Source: a virus. From it: 64,000 nucleotides of DNA. The stretch is taken from the IMG/VR virus record IMGVR_UViG_3300014204_007611; one strand, 5' to 3'. Shown piece after piece: positions 430 through 49,660 of the stretch (position 1 is the stretch's first letter; each line of letters starts with the position of its first letter). Below the pieces are notes generated by a model, which made no database searches, was not told the DNA's origin, and saw only the letters and a program-made list of their open reading frames with translations. A program made the translations under genes and the position numbers.

Positions 430-1500
430 TCAAGAAGTTTCTGCGGCAATCAAGCAGCCCTCTGCCACAGCGAATAATGGATCTTTACAACGCTTTACCT
501 TGTTGATGGCGAATGGTGGTTTTTCTTCTTCAAACAACTGTGCCACCATCTCTTCAAATCCAGTTGGGCACGACGTTCCACCGGCCATAAATACGTCAAT
601 CGGTTTGTCGATACGTGCACTTGTTTCGTGATCAACAAAACCCTGCGTGATGCCACGAATGACGTTCTGAATCAAGATGCGATAATGCAAAATGATATCG
701 AGTTCAAGGCGGGACGTGTAATTCTGAGTAAGGTCAATCTTTTCCTTCATCCGGCAGATTGTCGTCGGTGTCTCAGATGATTTCTTACGCGGCGAATCTG
801 GGTCGTAACCGTGACGCTTGGCAACTTCAGAGTCAATCCAGTCGCCAGCACCGACCCAACTAAACGAATAAATCTCATTGCCCCAAAGGACGTAACTGAC
901 CGTCACAGTACCAGCACCCCATGATATGCCAATACCAGTCGCATCTGGCGTCTCTTTGAGTACAAGAGCATGCGATTCCTTGATGGACGTCGTTTTGATC
1001 GTCGATTTGGTCTCATATCCAGAGATAATCAAATTCACGACTTGTTGATGGTAGTCGATATTCATCGGGCGGTTCAACGCGGCGGCTGTCGTGCAATAGC
1101 ACAAATTGATCTCTGGATCAAACTCACCGGCGTCGTGTTCGCACATCGACAACAAACCTTGAACGATACTGGAAAGAACCATCAGTGCAGCCTCATCAGC
1201 AGCAACACCACCTTCAGCCATCGGGCGTAACAAGGTGTCGTTATGGGCATAGGCTAATTCTTCAGCATCCTTTCCCAAGACATAGATGCCGTCTTTCCCA
1301 TCGAGACGAACCCACTTCGCTGGCCGCTTGGTCCCATCGGATCGTAATTTGTTTGGGTCATCAAGCATATTCTCAACGAACTTGCTTGGACGCGGAATCA
1401 AATAATAGCCGTTGATCTCTCGCAGAAATACCAATTTTTTGTTGTTGCGGAACGAAACAACAATATTCTTCGTCCCAATATCAATACCTATCGCGTTCAT
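430..1500 (-). CDS. Actin-like ATPase (ASKHA superfamily, ParM/StbA/Hsp70-like fold)
   Basis: GIDIGTKN phosphate-1 motif directly after an internal ATG at 1500, which is preceded by AGGAGAG at a 6-nt spacing. A C-terminal AGGTS motif is present. The ORF track extends the frame to 1797 through a Pro-rich stretch without a better ribosome-binding site, so the start is ambiguous. Confidence 0.5.
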   Translation of the reverse strand: MNAIGIDIGTKNIVVSFRNNKKLVFLREINGYYLIPRPSKFVENMLDDPNKLRSDGTKRPAKWVRLDGKDGIYVLGKDAEELAYAHNDTLLRPMAEGGVAADEAALMVLSSIVQGLLSMCEHDAGEFDPEINLCYCTTAAALNRPMNIDYHQQVVNLIISGYETKSTIKTTSIKESHALVLKETPDATGIGISWGAGTVTVSYVLWGNEIYSFSWVGAGDWIDSEVAKRHGYDPDSPRKKSSETPTTICRMKEKIDLTQNYTSRLELDIILHYRILIQNVIRGITQGFVDHETSARIDKPIDVFMAGGTSCPTGFEEMVAQLFEEEKPPFAINKVKRCKDPLFAVAEGCLIAAETS

Positions 1501-1573
1501 TTCAGCTCTCCTGATTTCGCAATCATCACCCAATCCAAATACTAAAATCGATTCTTCTAATTCCTCATCGCTA

Positions 1574-1894
1574 TTATTTATCACGTTTTGTGACTTTTGT
1601 TCCAAATCCTCCCTTGGGGATTGGGGGACGTCCAATGGACGGCGCGAGGGCCTGGGGGGCAAGATTTGGCGCGTGGAGAATTGGAGCGGAAACGGACTGC
1701 TCGGAGGCATTAACAACTCTCGTCGTTGAGCCATGCTCTCCGGAATTCGTTCCGGTGGCATCTTTCTGAAGCGGTCTTTCCAGCTTGCTATTAACAAATG
1801 AATCCCTGTCTCGGAAAACTATTATTGCTAATGTCAGCGCGACTGATGCCACAACCAAAGCCAAAACCGCAATCAGTAGTGCCACAACATCCAT
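1574..1894 (-). CDS. Small membrane protein (N-terminal TM helix), hypothetical
   Basis: 106-aa ORF with a hydrophobic N-terminus (VVALLIAVLALVVASVALTLAIIVF). It fits between the upstream GT gene and the actin-like gene if the latter starts at 1500. It is in a different frame from the extended 430..1797 reading, so the two calls are mutually exclusive. Confidence 0.3.
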   Translation of the reverse strand: MDVVALLIAVLALVVASVALTLAIIVFRDRDSFVNSKLERPLQKDATGTNSGEHGSTTRVVNASEQSVSAPILHAPNLAPQALAPSIGRPPIPKGGFGTKVTKRDK

Positions 1895-1899
1895 ATTAA

Positions 1900-3402
1900 C
1901 TACTTCTTGGGTTCGGCTTGCTGGCTGCTCATCATATATTCATATCTTAATAAAGAAATATTCCATTTCTTCAATGCTGGAAGCAGCATGTCATATCCCC
2001 TATTGATGCGAGCTATGTAGTTCTCAGTATCTTTGTTGTCGGGCCAGTATTTCCCCTTATTATATTGCGGAACAAGAGTAGTATGGCTGCGACCATCTGG
2101 CGCAAGTCTCGCATCACACCCGAATAAAGTAATAGACTTCGCACCAAGGAACGCAGCGATGTGGATAGCAGTATGAACGGTTGAAGCGTGATGAAAGAAT
2201 GGCTGATCCTTATTATTCAAACAAGAATCGCTGTCTTGCGGACCCAAATCATAAGTAATGCAATCTGAAAACTTCTCTGGCGGTTCAATCGACGTTCTAC
2301 CAGCACCAGTTTTCAATTTCTTTGGGATAAGTAATTGATTTGGCAAATAACGCTTAGCGTCTATGACGGATTCTGCCGGTTTTAAGTCGTGGAATACAAC
2401 ATAATCGCAATCAAACACCAAAGCATTCCAATTAACACCTATCACCACATCAAAATCGTCGAGAATTCCCTTTGTAACGAGATCGAGAGATGGACCAGCA
2501 CCGAGGACAGCAATACGAGAATTAGCGTGACGATTCTTAAGCATCTCAATCCGCGAAAGATCTGGCAAAAAATTATCAAGAAACCATTGAAATGGTCTTT
2601 TTTGAATGCGATCTCGTATAGCTATGCGCTCAGACAAATCACCGAATTTGATATCTCCTGGTTTTTTACGTATAGCTTGGTAGAAGAATTTTTTGTAATC
2701 TCCGAACCACACTTCTGCTATTCGCGCTTTGTTCTGCTCTAATGTCGTAGTATCAAGATCATAATTGAACTTATTCTTGAACCAATGTGCAACTACAGAG
2801 TCACGAATGATTTCGACAGAGCCGCCAGCCATCCAAGTTCGCAATGAAAACTCGATATTTTCACAGCCCCACTTATACATCCCGGTGTCGAAGCCGCCGA
2901 TCTCTTCCCACCATTGTTTTGTAAAAGCGAAGCAATGACCAGCCAAACAGGGCGTCATATCACTACCATCATCGTTAATCCAGTTGAAGTCGAGATTCCA
3001 TCGCCAGCCGGTCTTGGCATAGGCCGCAGTCGTCTCCATCCAAGTCGGAGCATCAAGACCTCTAGTTAGCGGTACACCGACACAATTATATCTCTCTGTC
3101 AATCTGGTGACAATTGGTAATAGCCAATTGGGTGCAACTTTTACGTGTGCGTCTATCGACACAATAACTGGCGATTTGGCGGCAGCAGCAGCGAGGTTGC
3201 GTGATCTCTGTAGACCCTCACGCATTTGGTTCCGAATGATTCTCACATTCGGCCTGTCTATTGCAATTGGAATTTTACTGCAATCATCAACGACAATGAA
3301 TTCGTCGATCAAGCCAGGCATAGTGTTGGCTATGATTGTGTCGATTGTTTTTTCGGTGTATTCTTCATTTAACACCGACATTATAATTGTTGCAGTTGGC
3401 AT
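1900..3402 (-). CDS. Bifunctional glycosyltransferase: N-terminal GT2 (GT-A, DxD) domain plus C-terminal DUF115/Maf-like domain
   Basis: N-terminus SVLNEEY...EFIVVDDCS is GT2-like. The C-terminus IAVLGAGPSLD...VIGVNWN is a DUF115/MptE-like GxGPS motif. Confidence 0.6.
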   Translation of the reverse strand: MPTATIIMSVLNEEYTEKTIDTIIANTMPGLIDEFIVVDDCSKIPIAIDRPNVRIIRNQMREGLQRSRNLAAAAAKSPVIVSIDAHVKVAPNWLLPIVTRLTERYNCVGVPLTRGLDAPTWMETTAAYAKTGWRWNLDFNWINDDGSDMTPCLAGHCFAFTKQWWEEIGGFDTGMYKWGCENIEFSLRTWMAGGSVEIIRDSVVAHWFKNKFNYDLDTTTLEQNKARIAEVWFGDYKKFFYQAIRKKPGDIKFGDLSERIAIRDRIQKRPFQWFLDNFLPDLSRIEMLKNRHANSRIAVLGAGPSLDLVTKGILDDFDVVIGVNWNALVFDCDYVVFHDLKPAESVIDAKRYLPNQLLIPKKLKTGAGRTSIEPPEKFSDCITYDLGPQDSDSCLNNKDQPFFHHASTVHTAIHIAAFLGAKSITLFGCDARLAPDGRSHTTLVPQYNKGKYWPDNKDTENYIARINRGYDMLLPALKKWNISLLRYEYMMSSQQAEPKK

Positions 3403-3410
3403 ATTAGTCC

Positions 3411-4046
3411 TTATATATCAAGAGTGGTCTCACCGACGATTTGAAACTGAACTCCGCGTTTTCTGATTTCGCTAATTACGGCATTCATTACTGCTCGTTG
3501 GCTGGCAGAAATGCTACCGGGCCTAGGAGTATGATAAAAATAGTGCCTACCGACACTATTAAATCCGCAGCCGTACAATACTATCTTGGTTGCACCCATA
3601 AGATAAGCAAGCTGAACCGCACAACAACTGATAGTACCGCCAAACATCAAATAATTCATATCTGACTTTAGTCTATCGGATTTATACCATCGATACATAA
3701 ACGTCAGATGCGGCTCTACGGGTGGTGGTAGTTTTACACTGCTTTGCTTTGCAGTAATAACAGCCGTGCGTTTGATGTCTTGGAATAGGTCGATTGGATA
3801 TAAGATCTTATCAGGAGCGGCAGTCAATTTAGCAATAACTCTAACTCTAGAGCAGTCAATGTTGAACCAATCGAACGCCGACGACCTAGCATCACCACAC
3901 ATGAAATAATCAAATCTCTTACCAAGCTTGGCAGCACCATTCACACCTATAGAAAGGTGTTGATTTTTAAATTCGATCGCTGTTGGTCCTGAACCAACAA
4001 CAGCTATTGTCTCACCTTTATGGATACCATGTAGCGCTTTAATCAT
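3411..4046 (-). CDS. DUF115/Maf-like putative glycosyltransferase
   Basis: IAVVGSGPTAIEF...SIGVNGAA...FMCGDARS; paralogous to the C-terminal domain of the upstream gene. Confidence 0.45.
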   Translation of the reverse strand: MIKALHGIHKGETIAVVGSGPTAIEFKNQHLSIGVNGAAKLGKRFDYFMCGDARSSAFDWFNIDCSRVRVIAKLTAAPDKILYPIDLFQDIKRTAVITAKQSSVKLPPPVEPHLTFMYRWYKSDRLKSDMNYLMFGGTISCCAVQLAYLMGATKIVLYGCGFNSVGRHYFYHTPRPGSISASQRAVMNAVISEIRKRGVQFQIVGETTLDI

Positions 4047-5905
4047 TATTTTCGTTTTAAAGAAGAAAAAACTTCACTTGTCTCTGTATCCCATTCTCCA
4101 ATATTGCAGAACGATTCCGGCCATAGTACTTTGCCGTCTCTTTCGTCAGGACCTTCATCTAAAAAGCAACCACACACAGCACATCGATTAGCGGTACGTT
4201 GTGTGCATAAAGCACATTTATCTAATCTGGCTTCAATTGTCTCAATTCTGGCTGTTTTGGCTCCAGACAATTTGTGTTTCGCTAATGCCTTTGCATAATT
4301 CCAAATCATCCTAGGCATCGCCGGTAGCTTCTTTTTATCGGCTGGATCACGACTTAATAAAGTATAACCATAATCATCATTTTGATGTTCAACGACTGAC
4401 CATTCAGGATTCTCACGCATCCATTTGCGCATCGCAATAAATAAGCCAGGACCGGAAGGTTCGCCCACTTCGCCATATGCACCAGTTGAACGCAACAGAA
4501 TCCAACGACGTGCTCTCTTGCCGAATTTAGACAATTCAGCGTATAGCCTATCAGCCTGATGTATAGAATGGATGACCAATAAATCAGTTTCATCTATGTC
4601 GGCTAGCATCATCCAATCGACCGCATAATTCGAATAACTCGTACTGCCAGCAATTTCTAATAACTGCTGATGGACTGGCGACGGCTCTGATGTATAGACA
4701 CGCAGCACTTTGGGATGCCCGGCCAACAAAGTGACATCAAACTCTTTCTGTTTGACTAATGCCGTTACATGACTACACTTCGAAGCTAAATCGCGGAAAC
4801 GCGGCATATACTTGCCCATGTTATGTGGGTGCGATTCAGTCCAAGCGAACGCCTCCTCGATTGTATTGCCTATGCGTTGACATCCAGAGCATGGTGCAAA
4901 GATGTGTCCAATGGGGTCTTCAAGAAGATAGTTCCACGCTTTTACGTCGATAGGCTTATCGGTGCCGACAAAATGGTCTTTTATTCCATCTAACGGTAGC
5001 TGCAGCTCTTGATGCCCAATTACATAGTTTCTTATTCTATCCCAATAACTTAATGGATAAGATGCTCCTCTAGGCCGCAGAAATCTGTGTGTCCATCTAA
5101 GAAATGGCAAGTTCAAGCATTTCTTACCTGCTTGTCGATACTTAATGTGAATATAGCCTTCTTCACCACCAAATCCGCGAAACGTTGGATTGAATTTAAG
5201 CCACGCATCTTTTCGGCACGTGAAAAGCCCCATCCCATTTGCTGGTATTTCGAACGGTTGGTCGTAATCGCTAGAGCCAATCGTTTTACATCCAGCGTTA
5301 TAAAATTCTGTTTCGTGGCCGTAGTATGGAATCTTCGGATATTGCAACCCACAGTCCGGGCATCGCTGGTAGGTTTTGTCAAAATCCATTAAATCGTGTG
5401 CTGTGGTATCTTCAGCCGATATCGGTATCGAGAAGTGCCACCCACATTTACAGGACCACGCGCGGCTCCAAATACCCCACATAGCACCTCGCCATGTCAA
5501 ATCGAAATGAGTCGAAATATCATGCAGGTCGTTATAAACAAGCGGGCCAGTGAGCAAATCATTATTATCTGGATTATGCTCATACCAATTTATCAGGCGT
5601 TTGATGGCACCTGGGGCGAGCATGATATGACAATCCATGCAAAGAACGAGTTCAGTTTGTGCTTCGTCGAAAACACGGCCTTTCGCATTTGCAGCGCCAA
5701 CAACATCTTCGTAAGCGATATAGCGAGCTGGCGTTTCTGCAATAAAGGAAGCGACAGCTTTACCATCTGGAGTATTTGGTGAATTATCGACGACTAGAAG
5801 CTCGACATCGCTTAAATCGTGATACATCCTCAACGCTTGGATGGAGAAATAAACCCCATCAAAGTCATTGTAATGGGCCATCCCAATCGTTAGTCTCTTG
5901 ACCAT
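4046..5905 (-). CDS. Glycosyltransferase family 2-like protein with a C-terminal Cys-rich extension
   Basis: LTIGMAHYNDFDGVYFSIQALRMY...VELLVVDNSP is a GT-A fold with a DxD-like VVDNS motif. It overlaps 3411..4046 by an ATGA junction. Confidence 0.55.
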   Translation of the reverse strand: MVKRLTIGMAHYNDFDGVYFSIQALRMYHDLSDVELLVVDNSPNTPDGKAVASFIAETPARYIAYEDVVGAANAKGRVFDEAQTELVLCMDCHIMLAPGAIKRLINWYEHNPDNNDLLTGPLVYNDLHDISTHFDLTWRGAMWGIWSRAWSCKCGWHFSIPISAEDTTAHDLMDFDKTYQRCPDCGLQYPKIPYYGHETEFYNAGCKTIGSSDYDQPFEIPANGMGLFTCRKDAWLKFNPTFRGFGGEEGYIHIKYRQAGKKCLNLPFLRWTHRFLRPRGASYPLSYWDRIRNYVIGHQELQLPLDGIKDHFVGTDKPIDVKAWNYLLEDPIGHIFAPCSGCQRIGNTIEEAFAWTESHPHNMGKYMPRFRDLASKCSHVTALVKQKEFDVTLLAGHPKVLRVYTSEPSPVHQQLLEIAGSTSYSNYAVDWMMLADIDETDLLVIHSIHQADRLYAELSKFGKRARRWILLRSTGAYGEVGEPSGPGLFIAMRKWMRENPEWSVVEHQNDDYGYTLLSRDPADKKKLPAMPRMIWNYAKALAKHKLSGAKTARIETIEARLDKCALCTQRTANRCAVCGCFLDEGPDERDGKVLWPESFCNIGEWDTETSEVFSSLKRK

Positions 5906-5929: not shown

Positions 5930-6667
5930 CTATGTACGCTTAGATACGATCGTAGTTGGGATGAACTCGACCTTCTCAGCAACTCTTAAACGGCGATCCT
6001 CAAAAAATGCCCCAATACGTTCTGTGTAAATAATCGTGTCGCCAAGAATTGTACACTTATAGGCCGGTAAATCATCACATATTACCAATAGCTGCTCGCC
6101 TGTGTCGATGTCGTATAAGAGTGCAAACAACTCTTCGTTATCGTATCGTTGCCCAGATACAATTAGCTTATTTGGCTGCTCAGCACAGTAAGATAAGCTA
6201 TAAACCATTACGTTTGGCATTTCTATAATATCGTCTTTAATAGCTGTTCTTATATGAATTACAGCAGGATTCTCCTTGCTAGGCTCAACAAACACAGTTC
6301 TATCTCTTTGAATAAATCCAGCCGGGGTATCTAATATCGCAACCGGAGCAGATAGGCTCGTAATGTCGGGGCCATCCATTCGGTATAATCTGTAACGAGT
6401 GAAATCGGCACCACCAGCGATGAATGATATATGTAAACCAAACTCGTCTTGCCAAGCACTCGGAGAGCATTCGAGCTTCTGAGTGAATCCAGTTTCCAGG
6501 CGAGTTGATTCTATCCCCTTAACATAATAGATATGCCACGGATCACATCTACAGAATAATAAGATCCTGTCGTCTACTACAGGTACCAAAAATGGCATAT
6601 GCGATCTACCATCAGGCACTCCATTAGGAACTATGACGGCCATACTATCGAACCTCCCTGGTCGCAA
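5930..6667 (-). CDS. Hypothetical protein
   Basis: 245-aa ORF, same strand, immediately downstream of the fibre paralogs. Confidence 0.4.
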   Translation of the reverse strand: MRPGRFDSMAVIVPNGVPDGRSHMPFLVPVVDDRILLFCRCDPWHIYYVKGIESTRLETGFTQKLECSPSAWQDEFGLHISFIAGGADFTRYRLYRMDGPDITSLSAPVAILDTPAGFIQRDRTVFVEPSKENPAVIHIRTAIKDDIIEMPNVMVYSLSYCAEQPNKLIVSGQRYDNEELFALLYDIDTGEQLLVICDDLPAYKCTILGDTIIYTERIGAFFEDRRLRVAEKVEFIPTTIVSKRT

Positions 6668-9222
6668 CCAATCTGCAATGACATAAACCCGTCATAGTTA
6701 TATATTGATGACTGGGTAAATGAATCTGGCAAACCAACCAAATAACCATTGGTAACAGCGCCGTTGCTATATTGTATGTGGTAAGCTGTCTCGATTATAC
6801 GCCAGTAGCCGGTTGCTGGTCCTATTTGTCCTTGATATGGCGTCAGATCCCATGTTCTGTGTGTGGGATTAACAACATAAGTTGCTACTACACGCGGTGT
6901 ACAAGTCGGAGAAGGCGTTGTAGTCGGTTGAGTTGTTGTTGGCGCGTGTGTTGTTGGTGGTGTTTGTGTCGTTGGTGGTGTTTGTGTTGTTGGAGCCGGT
7001 GTTGTACCCGGCTTGCATCTCGTGTAGGCGTAGGCCCCACCACCAGGTATTGGTTCCCTAGGAGTACTACTAGTAGGTTCGGAGCACGAACATCCTGGAG
7101 TGCAAGGATTGGTAACTCTAGACCAAGTGCCACCGCCTGGAGACATATACCATTTGCATTGCCCCGGACAAATAACAGGTGTCGGACCTTGAGTTGTAGG
7201 CCCTTGTGTCGTCGGCGGATGATGAGTTGTCGGTCGTGGTGTCGTCGGCGGATACCACGTTGTTGGTGGCCAGAACGTAGTTGTTGGCGCGGGCGTTGTT
7301 GTTGGAAATGGTGGAAGCGTTGTTGTCGTCGTCGGCTGTGGTCCGATGGTTGGTGCTACTGTTGTAGTCGGGGCAACTGTAGTTGTTGGTCGTGTAGAAG
7401 AGCCAATAGCGCAAGCTAATATTGAATACCCAAGACAACACACAACACCTTCGAGGTTAATATCAATCCCAAATTCAAGTGCTACGTTGCTTGGACCGGT
7501 ATATGTAAATGTTATCGGAGAGCCAATTGTCGAATATTGTTTTCCGCCAGTTATCGCAGAATTATTAGTGCATGCCGCTGACCAAGAAACTGGACATGTG
7601 GTGTCGTCTGGATAATTTGGGCAAGATTCGCTACTAATATATCTCGCTTCATCGCATATTGTGTTAAACTTACTACTAAACGTCATGTTAGCAGTAATAG
7701 AACCGCTATCTGTCCATGGTACATGGACAGTTACATCATAATGCTGTAGTGTGCCATCTATGACACAATCGAAGCCTTGACATGTCGGGTCGTCGGATGA
7801 GTTGGTGTTATAATTTACAGGTAGATTGATGTCTAAATATGTATCTAAATAACTCGGACAATCGCATGGGCAACATATTTCAACTGGTTCCGGCTTAATT
7901 GGTTCAACAACCAAAACAGGACAGCCGCCAGCAACATCATTAACATTAGAACAGAAAAAGAAGTCTTCTTGACAGCATCGCTGTCCAGGGAATTGCGGTT
8001 CAACAATTGCCCATGGATATCGTGAATCACGATTAGTTCCAGAATTTGCCTGTCGCCAAGCAACAATCGACGCCGGTGTAAAATCTTTCCACTTAAATTG
8101 ATTCGACTGGTGTTGTGTCCAGCAAGCCTCAATTGGCGTCCATTCAACAAATTGCAATGTTGGTATATCTATCTGTTTCTCTGCGAACTTGAATCGCGTT
8201 ATAGTCTTACAATCATCGATTGTTGATTTTACCGCTGCCAGTGATAAATCTGCGACAGTGTTCAACGGTGTTGTACTGGTAGTAGTGCAACTATGTAATA
8301 CTGCAAGCTTCGACACACAGTTGTTTGGGAATAGCTTGTCGGAAAAGAAATAGATGTCCGACATCAAGCTATTTGATCTCAACGAAATAACTGCAGTTGT
8401 TGCTTCTACAGTCTCATCTATAAAGCTATTTTCTACGACATCAATAAATCCGCCGCCATCCTTACCGTTTTGTCCCTTGTGGCCTATTTCATTCGCTTTG
8501 TAGTGCCAGGTGTTTCCAGCCCACGAATTTGATATTAATCTTCCAGATATATTAGAAGAAACGATATCGTAATTAAGAAACGAGCCGTCTTCAAGTTCTA
8601 CTTCTGAATAGATAATAGCATAAGGGTCGCCGTTTATCGGTTGCCAAATCGTCAATGAACTCTTATTAGAGCTGTTTTTGAATAGCCTTAAAGAAATAGG
8701 AGTGTCGATAGTCGACGCAGCGGTTGCATTGATTACAAGCGCCGTCCCGTCCAATGTCGCGGCGTGTTTTGTTTCTGATTTGCCGGGAGTACCATCAGGC
8801 CCAGTATTGCCACGTTCGCCAACAAGCCCATCTTTACCAGGGCATTTCAATTGTGATAGCAGTGCCAACAATCTAGAACGGTTGACCTCAATTCGCAAAT
8901 CGTTATTAGATTCCGGCGAAAACGAAACCGTGTGGTTTGACGATTGAAATAAATAATAATAACCAGTTAAATGTGGATAGATTTTCAGAAAGTTAAAACT
9001 CAAGCCATCTTTAGTGGCTTGAGATATCGCGTTAATGCGAGTAAAAATTGTAGGCGACACCAGGCCATCACTGGTTTCCGTTACGACAGAAGCGGCTGCA
9101 AACGTCCCAATACAAGACCAAGTGTTCAGCTTGCTGCTATATTGCCACCGGTCGCCGCTACTGTCAAGGACAATAGTGCCATCCGCTACGTTCGTTCCAT
9201 TACTCAACGCGTGGCAATTCAA
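6631..9222 (-). CDS. Fibre-like structural glycoprotein candidate, with a collagen-like G-X-Y segment and a Pro/Thr-rich mucin-like linker (paralog B)
   Basis: 863 aa. The N-terminal ~140 aa is about 70% identical to the adjacent paralog, with a short collagen-like run GLVGERGNTGPDGTPG and a conserved CCQEDFFFCSNVNDV block. The long TTPAPTT/PTTQGPTT repeat lies near the C-terminus. Confidence 0.6.
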   Translation of the reverse strand: MNCHALSNGTNVADGTIVLDSSGDRWQYSSKLNTWSCIGTFAAASVVTETSDGLVSPTIFTRINAISQATKDGLSFNFLKIYPHLTGYYYLFQSSNHTVSFSPESNNDLRIEVNRSRLLALLSQLKCPGKDGLVGERGNTGPDGTPGKSETKHAATLDGTALVINATAASTIDTPISLRLFKNSSNKSSLTIWQPINGDPYAIIYSEVELEDGSFLNYDIVSSNISGRLISNSWAGNTWHYKANEIGHKGQNGKDGGGFIDVVENSFIDETVEATTAVISLRSNSLMSDIYFFSDKLFPNNCVSKLAVLHSCTTTSTTPLNTVADLSLAAVKSTIDDCKTITRFKFAEKQIDIPTLQFVEWTPIEACWTQHQSNQFKWKDFTPASIVAWRQANSGTNRDSRYPWAIVEPQFPGQRCCQEDFFFCSNVNDVAGGCPVLVVEPIKPEPVEICCPCDCPSYLDTYLDINLPVNYNTNSSDDPTCQGFDCVIDGTLQHYDVTVHVPWTDSGSITANMTFSSKFNTICDEARYISSESCPNYPDDTTCPVSWSAACTNNSAITGGKQYSTIGSPITFTYTGPSNVALEFGIDINLEGVVCCLGYSILACAIGSSTRPTTTVAPTTTVAPTIGPQPTTTTTLPPFPTTTPAPTTTFWPPTTWYPPTTPRPTTHHPPTTQGPTTQGPTPVICPGQCKWYMSPGGGTWSRVTNPCTPGCSCSEPTSSTPREPIPGGGAYAYTRCKPGTTPAPTTQTPPTTQTPPTTHAPTTTQPTTTPSPTCTPRVVATYVVNPTHRTWDLTPYQGQIGPATGYWRIIETAYHIQYSNGAVTNGYLVGLPDSFTQSSIYNYDGFMSLQIGCDQGGSIVWPS
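6890..7400. repeat. Degenerate tandem repeats encoding the Pro/Thr linker of the second fibre paralog
   Basis: Repeated GTTGTTGG(T/C)G(G/C) units; they generate shadow ORFs on both strands. Confidence 0.55.
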
Positions 9223-9233
9223 CGCTCATCTCC

Positions 9234-11813
9234 TTAAAGATATTCATGAACCACCGGGTATCCGGCACCCGATTCTGGATAATATGTGCCTGGATTTGTT
9301 ATGCTGTATCCAGCAGTCGGTTGCTTCCATGCGCTAGATCCCAATGACGCACCAATGCTATAATATCCACTAGTGCTACACCAAATGGTATAAGAGCCAT
9401 CAGTTCTAACAGCATACACTCTGCCATTATAATCGCCAGCTGCTAGATAATCGCCAGTACAATCCGGCTGCACAGAGCTGCCTCCTGTAACATAATAATC
9501 CGGTGCAGTTGGCGATGGCGACAGTGAATGTGATGGCGACAGTGAATGTGATGGCGACAGTGAATGTGATGGCGAATGCGATGGTGACAGCAGCGATGGT
9601 GATGGCGATGGCGAATCTGACGGTGAAGCCGAAAGTGGCGACAAAGAAATCGATAACAATGACGGAGATATCGACAATGGCGATTGCGATGGCGTAGGAG
9701 ATATTGATGGTGATGGCGACGGCGAATTACTCAAACTCAACGATGCCGATGGCGACAATGATTCAGATGGAGACGGTGAAGGCGACAATGATTCAGATGG
9801 AGATGGTGATACCGATACCGATGGTGATGGTGACAATGAAACCGATGGCGACAAACTGATCGATGGCGACAATGAAGTCGAAGTTGATAATGATGGTGAT
9901 GGCGAAGGCGATACACTTAGCATGATTTCAGCGGCACTAGTCTCACCAGCAGCAGATACTGGGTCAAGTGCGCTAACTGATACTGTTATCCTGTATCCTA
10001 AACAGCAGTTCAATCTTAATGTATTGATCTCTGCATTAGTGACTATCGTCCCAGACGTACCACTAAAATAAAAAGTGATAATTCCAATATTTGTCAAAGG
10101 CTGACGGCTATCGCCAGATTGGCGTGATATCGTGGTCGTCGCAACCGTTTTATCAGTAACCGCCCATCCTATAGGACAACTTGACTGGCTTACCGCAACA
10201 CGCGGGTCGAATGTAAATCCAGGTATCGTACTTTCTTGAGATTGGTATATCTCTCGCGCATCGTCACATATCGAATCGTATTCCAATCTCCAAGTGACTT
10301 CCACCACTATTGGTGATGTTGTTGATATATTGACAGTTGCATTATATTCATGCAGTCCGCCATTTATACTACAAACAGCAACCTGTGAAGATGTATTGCC
10401 GATAGCCGTTAAATTGACATCCTCAAACTCATATCCACCCTCTAATAAAAATGATATCGGGCAGTCGCAGTTGCAACCATAAGTCGAGCCAGCTGGAGTC
10501 TGGATACTATCAACAATTCCAATCGGGCAAGCTCCGGTTACATCATTAACATTAGAACAGAAAAAGAAATCTTCTTGGCAGCATAGTTGGCCTGGGTCCG
10601 CCTCTTCAACTATCGACCATGGATAGCCTGGGTTAGATGCCATGCTCTCGTTGGCTTTTTGCCAAGGCATCATCCCAGAATCAACCTTTGTGTAATCTGG
10701 CCACATCAACCTAGAAGCAGCAAGATGTCTTTGTCGCAAACACGTGCCAGTAGGAGTCCAATCGCTAAACACCAATTTCGGAATTTCAGCTACAACAGGG
10801 TTTATATTGTACCTAGTTATGCTTTTACAACTATCGGTTGAAACCTGTAATGCGGCATATGTGTCGGTTATCGATGTCGTTGTAGTAGCACAAATATGGC
10901 TAACAGCCAGTTTTGATACACAATTTGTTTTGAATAGCTCTGACGATAAATAATTTATCGAATTCAAGCCGTCACCTTGACGCATCAAGATTATAGCTGC
11001 GTTCGACATTAAATTACTATCATTTACAGCATCTGACACGACACTTATGAAGCCGTGCCCGTCTTCACCAACAGGGCCTCTCTTACCCATTTGTAAAGCT
11101 TTATAGTGCCATGTCAGCGTACTCCATTGTTGGCTGGCTATCTGCCCAGATAAACGTCCATCAGCATATTCCAAAAATGTCGAGGCAGTATCAATTATTA
11201 TCGAAGACGACACTACCTCGAATTCAGATCCGACAATTTTTATTACGACTGAAGGAGTAGAAGAATAACTAGAAAACAATCTTAAAGATATTGGCGTGCC
11301 GAGTGAATCATCAACAGCTACATCAATCGACATTCTTGAATCGGATATAGAAGCTGGATACTTCTTTTCCGATTCACCAGGAGAGCCATGTGTCCCTGTA
11401 TCTCCTTGCTCACCGATAAGCCCCTGCTCGCCTGGACATCTAAGTTGTGATAGTAGTGCAAGTAATCGCGGCCTATTGACCTCAATCCTTAAATCATTGA
11501 TCGATTCTGGCTCAAATGTCAGAGTGTGATTTGAGGACTGGAATAAATAATAATAGCCAGATAAGTGAGGGTATATCTTTAGGAAATCGAATGTCAGACC
11601 GTTTTTAATCGCTGACGATATCGCATTTATACGAGTGAAGATGGACGGAGAAACCAATCCGTCTTTAGTGTCGGTAACGACTGGCGAGTCATCGATGGTT
11701 CCGATATTCATCCAGGAATTCAACTGGATGTTATATCTCCAAATTGATCCATAGACATCACAGACCTCCATACCATCTGTCGGCGTTTTCGGTAGGCGTG
11801 TGATGTTTGACAT
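9234..11813 (-). CDS. Fibre-like structural glycoprotein candidate, with a collagen-like segment and a Ser/Pro-rich linker (paralog A)
   Basis: 859 aa. The N-terminus and central Cys-rich blocks are shared with 6631..9222 (GEQGLIGEQGDTGTHGSPG; CCQEDFFFCSNVNDV). The linker is SPSPSxSLSPS repeats, encoded by the tandem DNA repeats around 9490-9960. Confidence 0.6.
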   Translation of the reverse strand: MSNITRLPKTPTDGMEVCDVYGSIWRYNIQLNSWMNIGTIDDSPVVTDTKDGLVSPSIFTRINAISSAIKNGLTFDFLKIYPHLSGYYYLFQSSNHTLTFEPESINDLRIEVNRPRLLALLSQLRCPGEQGLIGEQGDTGTHGSPGESEKKYPASISDSRMSIDVAVDDSLGTPISLRLFSSYSSTPSVVIKIVGSEFEVVSSSIIIDTASTFLEYADGRLSGQIASQQWSTLTWHYKALQMGKRGPVGEDGHGFISVVSDAVNDSNLMSNAAIILMRQGDGLNSINYLSSELFKTNCVSKLAVSHICATTTTSITDTYAALQVSTDSCKSITRYNINPVVAEIPKLVFSDWTPTGTCLRQRHLAASRLMWPDYTKVDSGMMPWQKANESMASNPGYPWSIVEEADPGQLCCQEDFFFCSNVNDVTGACPIGIVDSIQTPAGSTYGCNCDCPISFLLEGGYEFEDVNLTAIGNTSSQVAVCSINGGLHEYNATVNISTTSPIVVEVTWRLEYDSICDDAREIYQSQESTIPGFTFDPRVAVSQSSCPIGWAVTDKTVATTTISRQSGDSRQPLTNIGIITFYFSGTSGTIVTNAEINTLRLNCCLGYRITVSVSALDPVSAAGETSAAEIMLSVSPSPSPSLSTSTSLSPSISLSPSVSLSPSPSVSVSPSPSESLSPSPSPSESLSPSASLSLSNSPSPSPSISPTPSQSPLSISPSLLSISLSPLSASPSDSPSPSPSLLSPSHSPSHSLSPSHSLSPSHSLSPSPTAPDYYVTGGSSVQPDCTGDYLAAGDYNGRVYAVRTDGSYTIWCSTSGYYSIGASLGSSAWKQPTAGYSITNPGTYYPESGAGYPVVHEYL
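9490..9960. repeat. Tandem nucleotide repeats encoding the Ser/Pro linker of the fibre paralog
   Basis: GTGAATGTGATGGCGACA repeats three times, followed by multiple GATGGCGA(C/T)(A/G) variants. Confidence 0.6.
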
Positions 11814-11818
11814 ATTGA

Positions 11819-12064
11819 TTAATCATCCGACGATATCGCGTCCAATAACTCGCTAGGATCATAGTCGACCAGAGGGACTACTTTGTCGGTGCCTTCTTCA
11901 TGTTCGACCTCTGCGGCGCAATGAACACACAAGACCGTATCGGGAACGGCCTTCAATCGCTCCTTTGGTATTTTTCGCCCGCACTGTTCGCAGACCACAG
12001 CATCTTCAATCTTAGCCTTTCCAAGTTTGTTATTTTTCATACTACCTCCATGGTGTGAATACAT
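11819..12064 (-). CDS. DksA/TraR-family C4 zinc-finger protein
   Basis: CEQCGRKIPKERLKAVPDTVLCVHC is the classic DksA/TraR CxxC-x17-CxxC finger. Confidence 0.55.
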   Translation of the reverse strand: MYSHHGGSMKNNKLGKAKIEDAVVCEQCGRKIPKERLKAVPDTVLCVHCAAEVEHEEGTDKVVPLVDYDPSELLDAISSDD

Positions 12065-12093
12065 TACTTACGAAGTCATTCAAAACTAAATAC

Positions 12094-12717
12094 ATGGGTA
12101 CCTGCAATATCAAGTTTGAACAGAAATTATCATCCGCTCTATTACTATGTGAATCTATATCAGGTAGGGATATAATTTCTGCTATAAATAAACAACGCCA
12201 ATCCAAACGTCTGAATCCTGTCAACCACAATAGCAAGATAGATATCGCTGCCAAGATACAAGCCAAACAAATGGCTATGACAGGGCAATTCAAACACACC
12301 TTACATGGCGTTAAATATCCAAACCTTGATGATAGAATGCGGGCTTCTGGTTACGCCTATTACAAAGCAGGAGAGGTGCTATTCACAGGAAACGAAGGTC
12401 CAGATGCAATAGTTAATCTGTGGATGGGATCAAAGCCGCACAAAGAAGCGATATTGCATCCAGATGTCAAAGAAATAGGTATATCTATAGAATATTCTCC
12501 TAGCCGCGAGCCATATGTCTGCGCAGTATTATGTGCTCCGTTTGGAGAAAGCCAAGAGATGGCGGCAGAAATTGCTAATAAAATCGTCAGTATAGCTAAA
12601 GAGCAGGGTACTATCGCAGCAAAAAGAATACTCAACGATATAGCACAATCTAAGGCAATGCAATGGGTGATTAGATCACCACAAGTACAAAGAGTTATTG
12701 CTGCTCTGAGGCGATAA
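12094..12717 (+). CDS. CAP/SCP (YkwD-like) domain protein, likely secreted or lipoprotein
   Basis: NLWMGSKPHKEAILHPDVKEIGIS matches the CAP signature WMNSxGHRxNIL...IG, and GYAYYKAGE matches the YkwD GYSY..GEN block. ATG at 12094; the track's 12055 GTG start overlaps the upstream divergent gene. Confidence 0.5.
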   Translation: MGTCNIKFEQKLSSALLLCESISGRDIISAINKQRQSKRLNPVNHNSKIDIAAKIQAKQMAMTGQFKHTLHGVKYPNLDDRMRASGYAYYKAGEVLFTGNEGPDAIVNLWMGSKPHKEAILHPDVKEIGISIEYSPSREPYVCAVLCAPFGESQEMAAEIANKIVSIAKEQGTIAAKRILNDIAQSKAMQWVIRSPQVQRVIAALRR

Positions 12718-17117: not shown

Positions 17118-17350
17118 AATCATCAGGAAGCTTAAGATTTCAAACATCATATCTTGGAACAATTGAAATTCCACTATTAGTGGTGCGAGAGTATAAAATC
17201 AGCTATTGCGATTTTAATAGTCTGAGCCATGCCGAAAGAGACGAGCAGCGTGGTCGTGTGGAATTAAACGACGGGACTGTTTTATATTCTACTACTAATG
17301 AGATAGAAGTCAAACCAAAATGCCGCAAGAAGAATTGGCGACACTGTTAG
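17114..17350 (+). CDS. Hypothetical small protein
   Basis: 78-aa ORF joined to sbcD by an ATGA overlap. Confidence 0.3.
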   Translation: MKSSGSLRFQTSYLGTIEIPLLVVREYKISYCDFNSLSHAERDEQRGRVELNDGTVLYSTTNEIEVKPKCRKKNWRHC

Positions 17351-19077
17351 CTCTTCTTTTTGCTTGGTTTCTTAATAACAACACTCTCTTCCGCCACAAT
17401 TGGTGCATATTTGCGGAAGCATAGTAGATTGTTAATAAACCAGCCCATGTGCGGGCCTTGCAAACAATATTCTATGCACTTGGAATGCAAAGCATCATCA
17501 TAGACCATACCAAGTGCTTCGAACTTCTCACGCCAGTATTGCTTCGGTCGGCAGTTAATATGCCCGACACCACCCTGACCAGGACGTGCCGCTGTCCATA
17601 GCAAAATGCCCCCTGGTAAGATGCAATCATAGACTTGTTTTGTGACTTGATCAGAATACTGCGGATCGATGTGTTCTGCTACTTCTAAACAAATCGCGAG
17701 CTGCTTCTGGAGTTTACCGTCTAATTTCAAAAGGTCTTCAACAAATAAACCCTCTTCATCGGCGATACGTGGATCGATGTCGATACCTATGCACTTAATG
17801 CCTATATCTGTCATCGCATAGGTGTATGTCCCAGGTCCGCATCCGATGTCGATCACATCTTTCGGATCGATAGCTTCCTTGATCCAAGTAGCTAATCGTT
17901 TTGCAAATGGCTCTTCTTCTTTTGCTACTTGTGCATAATCGATCTTCTCTTCAACAGTTGGGTAGAACTTCTTGTTGAATCCTAATTCAGTGCGACCGGG
18001 CTTAGGCTCGTACCATCCCTTCTTGCCATAAATGTCGAGGATAGAGTCAAAAAACTCCTCGTACATCGCAGCAACCCGCTCCATCGAGAAGTTGTTGAGT
18101 GCCCAAGCACGACAAACATGTGGATCGATTTTGTCGAGGTTCTTCACAGCCCACACAAACTGCTCAAATGTGTGACAACGATATCCAGTAATCCCGTGCA
18201 GGTTGTTCTCAGTGAAAGCACCCCAATCGGAAGTAATAGTAGGTGTCCCAGAAAACAAGCATTCAACTTGAACGCCACCGAAAGGCTCGTTGTATTGGCT
18301 TGCAAGAATAAGACCTTTAGCGCGAGACATCAGCTTCTTACGTGTCTCAATATCAGCGTAACCAACAAATTCAACTGACGGGTCTTTTGATAGTTCATAA
18401 TCACCCATCTGACCGGCGACCTTGAGCTTTATGCCCGCAGCCTTTGCGACTTGCTCGGCGATGTGAATGCCCTTCCCAACATAAACTCGACCGCAAAAAA
18501 GCAGATAGTCGTCTTTCTCTGCCGAGAATTCGAATTCATCCGGATTGAAATAATTCGGTATGACGACATCATAATTATTTTGGATACATGAGCCAACAGA
18601 TTGAAGACCATAATAGGCATGATAAATCGCATATGATTCGAAAATCTTATACTTCGCCCAATGCCCTCCAGCATAACCAATGCCAGGTTCGACACAGATC
18701 AAGTCTGGGTGTGCATCACATATGACTCTATGCCCAGCACCCCAGAAAGGCAGGATGAAATCGTTCTTTTGTTTGCGTTTACTGATCTCCGCGATCGCAT
18801 TCGCATTGAATGTCGTATAGGCATGATCTCCGGTGTCGAACTTGAAGAAGTGTTTCCTCCAATCATGATCGCCATAAGCTTTCTTCCAGTCAGCGTCGGT
18901 GAGCACTGGCACATGCTCTGAACATTGCAAGTCTGAAGCTTCATGCCCGTAGTGAATGACAGTATGGCCACGATCTGTCATCATCTTAGCGAATTTGACG
19001 ACTTTCTGTGTATAAGCGCAGGCCACAAATTCTTTTGATGAAACTGTATGTTGAAGCCCCAATACATGAAATCGCAT
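17347..19077 (-). CDS. Bifunctional glycosyltransferase (GT4/GT-B) plus class I SAM-dependent methyltransferase
   Basis: The N-terminal half has EPFGGVQVECLFSGTPTITSDWGAF, a GT-B EX7E-type motif. The C-terminal half has VIDIGCGPGTYT (MTase motif I) and GIDID. Confidence 0.6.
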   Translation of the reverse strand: MRFHVLGLQHTVSSKEFVACAYTQKVVKFAKMMTDRGHTVIHYGHEASDLQCSEHVPVLTDADWKKAYGDHDWRKHFFKFDTGDHAYTTFNANAIAEISKRKQKNDFILPFWGAGHRVICDAHPDLICVEPGIGYAGGHWAKYKIFESYAIYHAYYGLQSVGSCIQNNYDVVIPNYFNPDEFEFSAEKDDYLLFCGRVYVGKGIHIAEQVAKAAGIKLKVAGQMGDYELSKDPSVEFVGYADIETRKKLMSRAKGLILASQYNEPFGGVQVECLFSGTPTITSDWGAFTENNLHGITGYRCHTFEQFVWAVKNLDKIDPHVCRAWALNNFSMERVAAMYEEFFDSILDIYGKKGWYEPKPGRTELGFNKKFYPTVEEKIDYAQVAKEEEPFAKRLATWIKEAIDPKDVIDIGCGPGTYTYAMTDIGIKCIGIDIDPRIADEEGLFVEDLLKLDGKLQKQLAICLEVAEHIDPQYSDQVTKQVYDCILPGGILLWTAARPGQGGVGHINCRPKQYWREKFEALGMVYDDALHSKCIEYCLQGPHMGWFINNLLCFRKYAPIVAEESVVIKKPSKKKS

Positions 19078-19113
19078 GGTTGTCTCCGGGTTTATTCCTT
19101 AAATACGTCTAAT

Positions 19114-20712
19114 TTAGCACTGTTTCAACGTATTCAGGTAATTCTTAATATCACCATTTGGCATTTCTACTCTATTGAACAGGTCTGGTTGGGTAACGCT
19201 CAATATCGTGTAAAATGCTTCTTCTGTTCCCATGTAGCCGTTTTCAACAGCCCAATTGACTTCGGTATAGAACAATGATGTCATCTGCTGGATTTGTTCT
19301 TTGGTTCCACCAAAGAGCGTGGCTCGGCACACATAATTAGGGTTTCTGGTACAACGACCAATCATGCCATTTATGTTGTAGCCGTGTATTTCTGCGTTTG
19401 TGTAATAAGCATAGGATGTAAGGAAGAATCGGTTCTTTGGTATTCTCGTAAAATAAAATTGATTCAAGTCACCATCGATATGATAACTACTGCAGATACC
19501 AGAGTCAACCCAATAGAAGTAACTGCTATTATTAGATCGCGAAGCTTCATCAAGCATGTGTTGCTTCGCCAGTGTGAGCGGAATATAATGACGCGAACCT
19601 ATTACGCTATCCTTCATCCAGGCTGACTGGTTGATCCACGAGTATGTAGATGTGACCTTCTGTACACCGTCAAAATAACCGGCACGTTCAATATCTGACA
19701 CATCAAACTTACGCAGATCCAATTCACCTCCTCCGCGAAGCTGCCGCATTTGGTCGAAATACTTCTCGTCGCAGAACAGCACCAATCGGTGTCTAGTGCT
19801 TAGGAGTTTCTTAACACCTTCGAGATAATGCGTTTCGAAGCTCCTATCGCTACGGTTGAGATCGACCATAGCAGACACTACCGTAATATCGTACGGGTGC
19901 CGATAGTCCTTATCTAAGAAACGATAGTTGAGTTGCGGGAATATTCTGTCATGTTTTAATTCATTCGGATAATAATCGTCTGGTGTCTTCGAATCGTCTG
20001 GTCTCTTACCAGCCATAGCACTACAATGATCGCCAAGATGGGCACAATACTGACCATCAAGGAAAACAGCCTTGAAACCTATCGCCAGAAATTTCCTATC
20101 AATATTCCATTCAGCGTGCCACTTTTCGACACGACCGAGTAAAATAAGATCATCACGGCGCTTGAGATTCGGGCTACCAACCCAACCATACCAAGCTAAA
20201 TGATAATCGGTTATACGCCATGGCTTCTTCCAGTAGAATGACACCTGCGAGCCGTCGTCTGTCTTGAATCTCACAATCTCTTTATCATAGCTGTCGATAC
20301 CTTGCCACTCGAATGTTCGCCACGAGATATCGACAACACCGACATTGCGATATTTCTGCAGAATTTTCTTTGAATCATTCAGATAACCAGTTCGAGAGAA
20401 TTCCCAGTCATCCTCAAGGTAGAAAATATATTCAGTGTCACAATATGACACCATGAAATCCATAGCCCACCATTGGCTGCGATTGTGCGGGAAACAGATG
20501 ACGTCACAATAGCTGCCGTATTCTTCCACCAATTTCTCAAAAACGCCATCTACGGCACTGTCGTCGACTATGACAGTCTTGGTCGTATAGTCCTTTGTAT
20601 CTGCAAAGGACTTCATAGTCTTCCTTAAAATATCTAATCTGTTGCAGCTTAATACGAATGTTGTGATATCTGATTCTGGCTGATCGACTGAATGGATTTT
20701 AACTTTACTCAT
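19114..20712 (-). CDS. Putative glycosyltransferase (GT-A-like N-terminus) with a large C-terminal domain
   Basis: TTFVLSCNRLDILRKTMKSF...TVIVDDSA at the N-terminus resembles a GT2 DxD region; the remainder is unknown. Confidence 0.45.
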   Translation of the reverse strand: MSKVKIHSVDQPESDITTFVLSCNRLDILRKTMKSFADTKDYTTKTVIVDDSAVDGVFEKLVEEYGSYCDVICFPHNRSQWWAMDFMVSYCDTEYIFYLEDDWEFSRTGYLNDSKKILQKYRNVGVVDISWRTFEWQGIDSYDKEIVRFKTDDGSQVSFYWKKPWRITDYHLAWYGWVGSPNLKRRDDLILLGRVEKWHAEWNIDRKFLAIGFKAVFLDGQYCAHLGDHCSAMAGKRPDDSKTPDDYYPNELKHDRIFPQLNYRFLDKDYRHPYDITVVSAMVDLNRSDRSFETHYLEGVKKLLSTRHRLVLFCDEKYFDQMRQLRGGGELDLRKFDVSDIERAGYFDGVQKVTSTYSWINQSAWMKDSVIGSRHYIPLTLAKQHMLDEASRSNNSSYFYWVDSGICSSYHIDGDLNQFYFTRIPKNRFFLTSYAYYTNAEIHGYNINGMIGRCTRNPNYVCRATLFGGTKEQIQQMTSLFYTEVNWAVENGYMGTEEAFYTILSVTQPDLFNRVEMPNGDIKNYLNTLKQC

Positions 20713-29095: not shown

Positions 29096-29098
29096 ATT

Positions 29099-30792: not shown

Positions 30793-30794
30793 CC

Positions 30795-31700: not shown

Positions 31701-31701
31701 C

Positions 31702-48877: not shown

Positions 48878-49071
48878 TAATGCCCGATTCTCCAGCGCGG
48901 CCACCAGACGTAAATGATGAGCAATGGCAAAAATTTATGAGCGAGTACCATATCACAGTATTGGTGCCGCTTGAAGTACACCTTCGCGAACGCGCTAGAT
49001 TGGTGAAAATTATTCTTGTAATGTTAATTCCGTCAGCCGCCATCATTATAGCAGCGTGGTGCGGATTATAA
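48868..49071 (+). CDS. Hypothetical small membrane protein
   Basis: 67 aa with a hydrophobic C-terminus. Confidence 0.3.
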   Translation: MGMIMPDSPARPPDVNDEQWQKFMSEYHITVLVPLEVHLRERARLVKIILVMLIPSAAIIIAAWCGL

Positions 49072-49659: not shown

Positions 49660-49660
49660 T

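Follow-up and report, generated by a model that had tools for sequence, protein, structure and literature searches.

Mucin-type O-glycosylation initiated by enzymes of the CAZy family GT27 is, to our knowledge, regarded as a eukaryotic trait that is found in bacteria only by engineering. In engineered E. coli, the human polypeptide N-acetylgalactosaminyltransferase (GalNAc-T) GalNAc-T2 was reported to work in the bacterial cytoplasm (PMC13345888). Maf proteins O-link nonulosonic acids to serine and threonine residues of flagellin (bioRxiv 10.1101/2020.06.03.131540), and threonines in the collagen-like part of BclA are O-glycosylated through an N-acetylgalactosamine (GalNAc) anchor (PMC6222408). 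The C-terminal tails of mycobacteriophage capsid and tail-tube proteins are O-glycosylated by phage-encoded glycosyltransferases (GTs), as cited in PMC12619734 from Freeman et al. (2023). The DNA analyzed here is the whole 64,000-nucleotide (nt) stretch of the IMG/VR record IMGVR_UViG_3300014204_007611 (the window), which contains 88 open reading frames (ORFs). It encodes two tandem proteins, FibA and FibB, upstream of GT genes that include a homolog of GT27 enzymes. Judged from the sequence, there is about an even chance that FibA and FibB are trimeric, modular surface fibres or adhesins with mucin-like spacers that are O-glycosylated by the adjacent phage enzymes. The coordinates of all features are listed in Table 1.

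An earlier note, made from the letters of the window, had described FibA and FibB as tandem paralogs of about 860 residues each. Both ORFs are exactly as described there, and the two proteins align in BLASTP with 43% identity over 615 residues (E 5e-151); FibB orthologs with 64-82% identity are present in nine related genomes. The shared N-terminal and cysteine-rich core blocks to which the note had pointed were confirmed as well, the motif CCQEDFFFCSNVNDV being found in FibA and FibB. Around residue 600, at a CCLGY motif, the similarity of the two proteins suddenly breaks off. In the core alignment of nine sequences 17 cysteines are invariant, among them CC and CxCxC motifs.

Seven Gly-X-Y triplets directly follow an invariant Cys-Pro dipeptide, and four more are found about 100 residues further on. 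In alignments of 9, 36 and 62 sequences the glycines of both runs are invariant at a period of three, X and Y are variable, and the positions of the runs are constant. As the position of both runs does not change across the 36 and 62 diverse members, they most likely constitute a triple-helical, hence trimeric, segment. The designation as collagen-like fibre, as originally proposed, rests on short Gly-X-Y runs with conserved glycines and is overstated, as there are only seven plus four triplets and neither protein matches the Pfam Collagen family (PF01391). Searches of FibA and FibB against Pfam, PHROGs and the PDB sequences returned no match, and the isolated C-terminal modules likewise returned none. 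Structure prediction, suggested as a check on the conserved domains, yielded generic immunoglobulin (Ig)-like fold matches only and no confident similarity to a known fibre; a first AlphaFold2 model based on nine sequences was poor (predicted local distance difference test, pLDDT, 46.5) and its Foldseek matches were noise.

FibA and FibB belong to a sizeable protein family. A word-indexed homolog search under-reported it (8 and 7 matches), and its size was revealed by an exhaustive HMMER search with a profile hidden Markov model, which found 226 cluster representatives of 124-2280 residues, 159 of them at E <= 1e-30. All members that were looked up are metagenomic or viral and are encoded on contigs of 107-395 kb. 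The family was found in none of 185,579 species-representative cellular genomes, and neither the locus (megablast) nor the N-terminal module (tblastn) matched any of 50,697 phage records. On this evidence the family seems to be previously undescribed, unannotated and restricted to phages. It appears to belong to the core genes of a broad jumbo phage group. Many members match only profile positions 1 to about 430; the N-terminal module is conserved and the C-termini are variable. In long members the C-terminal domains include Laminin_G_3, Big_1/Invasin_D3, VWA, NHL, cadherin-like and peptidase M8 domains. These added domains are extracellular binding-type modules, and phage fibres and receptor-binding proteins are built in just this way, with a constant proximal module and exchangeable adhesin-type ends, so that by analogy FibA and FibB may be placed among them. 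Five members contain inteins, composed of Hint plus LAGLIDADG; in at least two of these members (P0030, P0035) the intein interrupts the CCQEDFF motif precisely inside its invariant CC. The motif is thereby marked as the site under the strongest functional constraint in the family.

Distal to the core, FibA and FibB carry linkers with the properties of mucin-like domains rich in proline, threonine and serine (PTS domains), i.e., long segments dominated by these residues and tandem repeats. Examples of the peptides are TTPAPTTQTPPTT and SPSPSESLSPS, and the repeats are seen in the DNA as well, e.g., 18 nt in 3.4 copies with 100% identity at 9514-9575. Among the 88 window ORFs, segments with at least 70% Ser/Thr/Pro are present only in FibA, FibB and one ORF of 80 residues. 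The TTPAPTT sequence of FibA is also contained in EA2, a standard test peptide for GalNAc-Ts. Beyond the linkers, the two proteins end in 90-residue domains that differ from each other. A domain resembling, by eye, the C-terminal domain of FibA is inserted within the core of the family member P0004. The mini-domain with six cysteines between the two FibA linkers (CPGxCxW...GGGxW...NPCTxGCxC...GGGxxAYTRC[KR]P) occurs in all A-type paralogs except L002_A.

The tandem pair is found in 10 distinct genomes of the close clade, and more distant lineages encode a single gene. In a tree of the N-terminal module the A and B proteins form sister clades with mirrored topology, which indicates that the pair stems from one old duplication. 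The earlier note had described swapped linkers, Pro/Thr-rich in one paralog and Ser/Pro-rich in the other. This is true of FibA and FibB of the window, but a comparison over 10 related genomes revealed that linker type is not paralog-specific. B-type linkers are Ser/Pro-rich, poly-Thr (L002), (GAS/GAT)n plus Ser/Pro (L010) or absent. A-type linkers are Thr/Pro-rich, Ser/Pro-rich, poly-Pro or composed of long collagen-like (GAT)n repeats (L004, L008, L009). Such (GAT)n runs reach 20 or more triplets in some orthologs, and at the linker positions of L009_A, L004_A, L008_A and L010_B the (GAT)n or (GAS)n repeats keep a serine or threonine at every third residue. Distal domains have been exchanged between genomes; several orthologs (L003_B, L006_B, L009_B, L010_B, L014) lack such a domain and finish with a bare Ser/Pro tail. 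The B paralog of L002 has a C-terminal half that shares 61-73% identity with its own A paralog versus 21-43% with FibB of the window; this half was converted to A-type, a case of gene conversion between the paralogs.

The earlier note had placed GT2, DUF115 and GT4 genes immediately downstream of the pair (1900..5905). GT2 and DUF115 genes are indeed located there, but the GT4 genes of the window are not, and a 245-residue ORF intervenes between FibA and the GT genes. No homolog of this ORF was found at that position in any related locus; because it is missing there in the closest relatives, it is probably a recent insertion. The gene at 1900-3402 encodes a 500-residue fusion protein, which matches Pfam Glycos_transf_2 and Glyco_transf_7C, both above cutoff. 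In a phmmer search against the PDB its residues 2-282 aligned with residues 93-394 of GalNAc-T2, i.e., with the whole GT-A catalytic domain (E 7e-46). In total 16 GT27 structures were matched, with T1, T4, T7, T9, T10 and T12 as further GalNAc-T isoforms. The signature for binding of uridine diphosphate (UDP) and Mn is intact (VVDD37, DAH84, WGCENIEFSLR178 and the histidine of AHWF at about position 205). The DxH, WGxENxE and histidine motifs are kept in 10 of 10 close genomes and are invariant in an alignment of seven sequences (A7), and DxH and WGxENxE are present in 41 of 43 wider homologs. Judged by these motifs, the N-terminal half of the protein is an intact GT27-type catalytic domain, for which transferase activity is predicted. 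No comparable domain was found in 50,697 deposited phage genomes at E <= 1e-8. The 43 homologous clusters stem without exception from metagenomes, their contigs reaching 370 kb, and one of the homologs was labelled "polypeptide N-acetylgalactosaminyltransferase" by JGI. A homolog with 80% identity, P0165, is located on a 6-kb contig of a metagenome-assembled genome assigned to 'Candidatus Cloacimonetes bacterium'; either a phage fragment was mis-binned here, or the assignment hints weakly at the host.

The C-terminal half of the fusion protein and the separate 211-residue protein encoded next to it both resemble the DUF115/MptE-like domain of Maf proteins. The scores of the two window domains for PF01973 (25.9 and 26.8 bits) are below the curated threshold of 34.6; most homologs of the fusion protein carry a precomputed PF01973 annotation. 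The 211-residue protein has in addition a weak match to a sialyltransferase PHROG, and DUF115 homologs lie between the fibre and the GT27-like genes in L038-L040 and L048. The 619-residue GT2 protein, which has no match among the PDB sequences, is conserved in the close clade, in L015 and in L048. Further enzymes acting on sugars are encoded elsewhere in the window, namely a GT4 with a methyltransferase, a GT2 with HtrL, another GT4, a GT11 (fucosyltransferase family), a sulfotransferase, TylF-, CmcI- and FkbM-type methyltransferases and radical SAM enzymes. This set suggests a complex, possibly sulfated and methylated glycan. A nonulosonic-acid synthase was not found in the window. Glycosylation of DNA as the role of the GT27-like enzyme was considered and rejected on family homology alone; for the other GTs such a role is possible.

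In all 10 close genomes the genes follow the order fibre, (GT2), DUF115, GT27-MptE fusion, small membrane protein and Volactin, and about five lineages keep the succession fibre, DUF115, GT27. Four further lineages (L037-L040), found via GT27 homologs of 50-57% identity, encode a fibre (834-952 residues; E 1e-107 to 1e-142 for the N-terminal module), a protein of about 190-220 residues that is recognisable as DUF115 homolog in L038-L040, and a GT27-MptE fusion with intact motifs. In each of them a Ser/Pro-rich linker follows right after the fibre core. Genes of the CMP-sugar synthetase and UDP-GlcNAc 2-epimerase families are nearby in L037, L040 and L038, those of the CMP-sugar synthetase family in L037 and L040. 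The co-occurrence of a nearby GT27-like gene with Ser/Thr/Pro-rich linkers first looked negative in distant loci, which was resolved by inspection of the catalytic motifs. A fusion homolog is also found after the fibre gene in L030, L032 and L033, but there the DxH, WGxENxE and histidine motifs are lost, and the linkers of these fibres are poly-Pro, Pro-rich or contain only a poly-Thr patch of nine residues. Where the fusion is intact and the upstream region is readable, a fibre with Ser/Thr/Pro-rich linkers was found upstream in 14 of 14 genomes. The proposal that the fibres are substrates of the phage's own GTs thereby gains comparative support from the intact GT27 domain, the kept gene order and the co-variation of motifs and linkers. 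Glycosylation of the linkers is well motivated, if unproven, because all 14 assessable genomes with an intact GT27 domain have a fibre with such linkers whereas the genomes with a degenerate one do not.

The arrangement that we propose is the following. The N-terminal module would anchor the protein, and the two short Gly-X-Y segments would zip three chains into a trimer, with an Ig-like sandwich between them and the cysteine-rich region behind. The extended spacer would hold out an exchangeable distal binding domain. The mucin-like spacers would be O-glycosylated in the cytoplasm of the infected cell, prior to lysis, by products of the genes immediately downstream. In this scheme the first N-acetylhexosamine, by analogy GalNAc, would be linked to serine or threonine by the GT27-like domain, and the glycan would be lengthened by the Maf-like domain fused to it, by the separate DUF115 protein and by the GT2 protein. 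A stiff, protease-resistant glycan brush would be the outcome. It is rather unlikely, and goes beyond this arrangement, that the uncultured jumbo phage lineage has a self-contained eukaryote-style mucin O-glycosylation system, in which a cytoplasmic GT27 enzyme initiates on the fibre spacers, the Maf-like domains add an acidic sugar activated with cytidine monophosphate (CMP), and GT11, sulfo- and methyltransferases finish the glycan. If true, the phage would display a bacterial-virus 'mucin', of which the glycan and the distal domain diversify independently.

Several observations speak against glycosylated surface fibres, and the first of them concern the proteins themselves. No known fibre family in PHROG, Pfam or PDB was matched by sequence or fold, and only two of 62 members have a weak match to a tail-fibre PHROG. 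Furthermore, the genes are not part of a virion structural module: the fibre locus is located between helicase/Mre11/DksA and Volactin/DnaE genes, and these are the neighbours in every lineage. A different reading is that the family acts inside the cell, as a scaffold or tether that partners with the products of the flanking replication or cytoskeletal genes, and that the invariant cysteines could be metal ligands of an intracellular protein instead of extracellular disulfides. It is favoured by the adjacency to helicase, Mre11/SbcC, DnaE and Volactin genes in nearly every lineage, by the 17 invariant cysteines with their CC and CxCxC motifs, by the lack of similarity to known structural proteins and of a signal peptide, and by the inteins in the CCQEDFF motif of some members, inteins being common in replication proteins. 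We regard it as improbable, as the C-terminal modules of the relatives are typical of extracellular adhesion proteins and lectins, and as proteins in contact with the host are typically marked by rapid exchange of distal domains and by mucin-like spacers that grow through repeat expansion. Structural genes of jumbo phages are often dispersed. Moreover, Volactin homologs among deposited phages were found only in two uncultured huge phages of 595 and 485 kb, and in neither of them is a fibre-family gene present within 20 kb of the homolog.

The position outside a structural module, together with the lack of a recognisable virion-attachment domain and the bare Ser/Pro tails of several orthologs, would also fit proteins that are produced late and glycosylated, and that leave the cell at lysis as free glycoproteins, soluble or matrix-binding, instead of being built into particles, e.g., as decoys or biofilm-binding factors. 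This is very improbable, since a constrained N-terminal module, here of about 430 residues, together with distal ends that vary is what fibres anchored to particles usually show, and literature searches gave no precedent for such a released phage glycoprotein.

Glycosylation by the adjacent enzymes has opposing points of its own. The orthologs L001_B, L004_B and L008_B have no linker, linker 1 of L004_A and L008_A is mostly poly-Pro, and poly-Ser tails are seen in the fibres of L014-L016, although a GT27-like gene was found neither within 10 kb nor elsewhere on their incomplete IMG/VR contigs. Because of these exceptions and the exchange of modules, the primary role of the linker segment may be that of an extended spacer, as its variation suggests. 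The GT27-like protein has neither a ricin-type lectin domain nor an N-terminal type II membrane anchor. The co-variation of motifs and linkers is suggestive and comes from few independent lineages, and the conserved order of fibre and GT27-like genes may be merely inherited. In eight distant loci no GT family was found among the neighbours, within the 25 families listed of 34. It is therefore to be considered that the Ser/Thr/Pro-rich segments are unglycosylated spacers, i.e., polyproline-II-like rods or flexible tethers, and that the GTs act on another target, such as a protein of the capsid or tail, the envelope of the host or the DNA of the phage, and adjoin the fibre genes only through inherited order. 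Poly-Pro with few serines and threonines at linker positions, seen also in L032, the (GAT)n repeats and the lacking linkers agree with this, and so does L050, in which a GT27-like gene stands alone with no fibre gene. At least seven GT-type genes and the sulfo- and methyltransferases are spread over 50 kb of the window, which makes a larger glycan programme with other targets plausible, and DNA and host serotype are known targets of phage GTs (PMC12619734). We nevertheless consider this explanation unlikely: GT27 enzymes are polypeptide transferases, of which the whole catalytic domain and the motifs are conserved here, the fibres with such linkers lie directly upstream of the intact fusion but not of the degenerate one, and mucin-like segments are present in no other sizeable protein of the window.

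The assignment of the genome to a phage was confirmed by a T4-type prohead protease in the window and by the relatives, which are all IMG/VR viral contigs of up to 388 kb; no cellular genome matched. By its helicase the nearest cultured phage is Tunturiibacter phage Tunturi_5 (308 kb), with 29% identity. Because the relatives reach 388 kb and the nearest cultured helicase is only 29% identical, the source of the window is an uncultured, deep-branching jumbo phage. The samples of the close relatives come from leachate wells of a landfill in Southern Ontario (bioRxiv 10.1101/2024.05.30.596742). L010, L025 and L047 are one contig, IMGVR_UViG_3300037067_012889, of 363,885 bp. The window encodes a helicase, Mre11/SbcC-like nucleases, a DHH phosphoesterase, DksA, a dUTPase, a PurZ-like synthetase, an actin-like protein of the Volactin family and many sugar-handling enzymes. 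A scan for promoters and terminators returned no more sites than expected by chance and none inside intergenic gaps. Given the PurZ-like gene, adenine may be replaced by 2-aminoadenine in the phage DNA (Z-genome).

The Volactin gene adjoins the fibre/GT module and a split DnaE gene in almost every related lineage, with the neighbours recorded for L001-L004, L014-L016, L018, L030-L033, L037, L040 and L048. The Volactin ORF of the window with its TTG extension is probably overlong, as its relatives have 358-395 residues. A gene of 105-109 residues is present at the matching position in the gap between the GT27-like and Volactin genes in L001-L004 and L037. The first of two genes of the CAP (cysteine-rich secretory protein) superfamily is kept in related loci, on the opposite strand and just upstream of the DksA and fibre genes. 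Homologs of the DUF7873 protein with 42-47% identity are found in large phages of Arthrobacter, Gordonia, Rhodococcus, Vibrio and Rhizobium.

Table 1. Features of the window, with positions in nt and lengths or residue numbers in amino acids (aa).
Feature	Position	Strand	Basis or remark
FibB, 859 aa, upstream paralog, Ser/Pro-linker type	9234-11813	-	ORF; paralogy with FibA; orthologs
FibB conserved core, aa 1-615	9969-11813	-	N-domain, Cys-Pro-(GXY)7, Ig-like beta-sandwich, (GXY)4, Cys-rich region, second beta-rich block ending in CCLGY
FibB invariant Cys126-Pro127, then 7 Gly-X-Y triplets	11370-11438	-	Alignments
FibB second Gly-X-Y run, 4 triplets	11052-11087	-	Alignments
FibB CCQEDFFFCSNVNDVTGAC motif	10527-10583	-	Most conserved stretch of the family in alignments; intein insertion point in some relatives; served as search pattern
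FibB Ser/Pro/Leu-rich linker, aa 630-772	9498-9926	-	S 45-47%, P 22%; the 137 residues aa 633-769 have S 47%, P 22%, L 13%; DNA-level tandem repeats (Tandem Repeats Finder, TRF)
FibB C-terminal domain, about 90 aa	9237-9506	-	No family match; another domain or none in relatives
FibA, 863 aa, TTG start, downstream paralog, Thr/Pro-linker type	6631-9222	-	ORF; orthologs P0005-P0008, loci L001-L010
FibA conserved core, aa 1-607	7402-9222	-	Gly-X-Y runs at 8776-8844 and 8449-8484
FibA Thr/Pro-rich linker 1, aa 608-684	7171-7401	-	T 38%, P 27%; includes TTPAPTT
FibA 6-Cys mini-domain between the two linkers (CPGQCKWY...TRCK)	7012-7170	-	Conserved in A-type orthologs; no Pfam match
FibA Thr/Pro-rich linker 2, aa 738-773	6904-7011	-	T 47%, P 30%
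FibA C-terminal domain, 90 aa	6634-6903	-	Different distal domains in other genomes
ORF of 245 aa between FibA and GT genes	5930-6667	-	No Pfam or PHROG match; overlaps 3' end of FibA by 37 nt
GT2-family glycosyltransferase, 619 aa	4046-5905	-	Pfam Glycos_transf_2, E 1.4e-9; long Cys-rich C-terminal extension
DUF115/MptE-like (Maf-like) protein, 211 aa	3411-4046	-	Pfam PF01973, E 9.7e-6, below curated cutoff
GT27 polypeptide GalNAc-transferase-like catalytic domain, aa 1-285 of 500-aa protein	2548-3402	-	phmmer against PDB
MptE-like/DUF115 domain fused to the GT27-like domain, aa 290-500	1903-2535	-	Pfam PF01973, E 5e-6, sub-threshold
ORF of 106 aa with strongly hydrophobic N-terminal helix	1574-1894	-	Between GT27-like and Volactin genes
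Volactin-family actin-like protein	430-1797	-	Pfam PF25216, E 5e-42
CAP superfamily gene 1	12055-12717	+	
GT4 genes	17347-19077 and 26466-27455		One with methyltransferase
Sugar-tailoring gene set	17347-20712, 21478-22029, 26466-32328, 49066-50395		
DUF7873 protein, 245 aa	23061-23798	-	Pfam match end to end, E 1e-95
CAP superfamily gene 2	24290-24766	-	
PurZ-like protein, 427 aa	42097-43380	+	phrog_1211 '2-aminooxy adenylosuccinate synthetase', E 1e-46; Pfam Adenylsucc_synt

Phage-encoded glycosylation of a phage's own surface proteins is known already; new are the GT27 enzyme family in a phage and the undescribed protein family, which is now defined by its 226 cluster representatives. A natural, compact, anchor-less GT27 homolog of a phage beside a probable mucin-like substrate is notable and constitutes a directly testable pair of enzyme and substrate. 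The homolog is moreover a candidate enzyme for glycoengineering, predicted to fold and work in bacteria. If the linkers are glycosylated, glycosylation of phage virions would reach beyond mycobacteriophages, with a new enzyme family and a new protein family.

The closest enzymes are the animal GalNAc-Ts of CAZy family GT27, such as human GalNAc-T2, with which the phage domain aligns end to end and shares the catalytic motifs, the candidate acceptors again being tandem repeats rich in Pro, Thr and Ser. In contrast to these enzymes, the phage protein lacks the membrane anchor, the stem and the ricin lectin domain, carries a Maf/DUF115-like fusion instead and would act in the bacterial cytoplasm. 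With Maf flagellin glycosyltransferases the phage module shares a putative DUF115/MptE-like domain, which it contains twice, and CMP-sugar synthetase genes near the locus in two related lineages; it differs in that the PF01973 matches stay below the curated threshold and that the window holds no recognised nonulosonic-acid synthase. As in O-glycosylation of mycobacteriophage virions, GT genes of the phage adjoin genes for proteins with Ser/Thr-rich low-complexity tails, several fibre orthologs ending in a bare Ser/Pro tail. However, the enzymes here are GT27-like and Maf-like, the proteins are unrelated and fibre-like and are not capsid or tail-tube proteins, and the phage is a jumbo phage from landfill leachate. 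The Gly-X-Thr repeats of BclA from the Bacillus exosporium resemble the (GAT)n and (GAS)n repeats of the four orthologs named above, but the proteins of the window hold only seven plus four triplets, their linkers are mucin-like and not collagenous, and no sequence homology was seen. Finally, phage fibres and spikes with short collagen-like trimerisation motifs have in common with FibA and FibB a constant N-terminal part, a hypervariable tip, Gly-X-Y segments and domain swapping; unlike in these known fibres, the genes of FibA and FibB lie among replication genes, and their products resemble no known fibre family in sequence or, with confidence, in fold.

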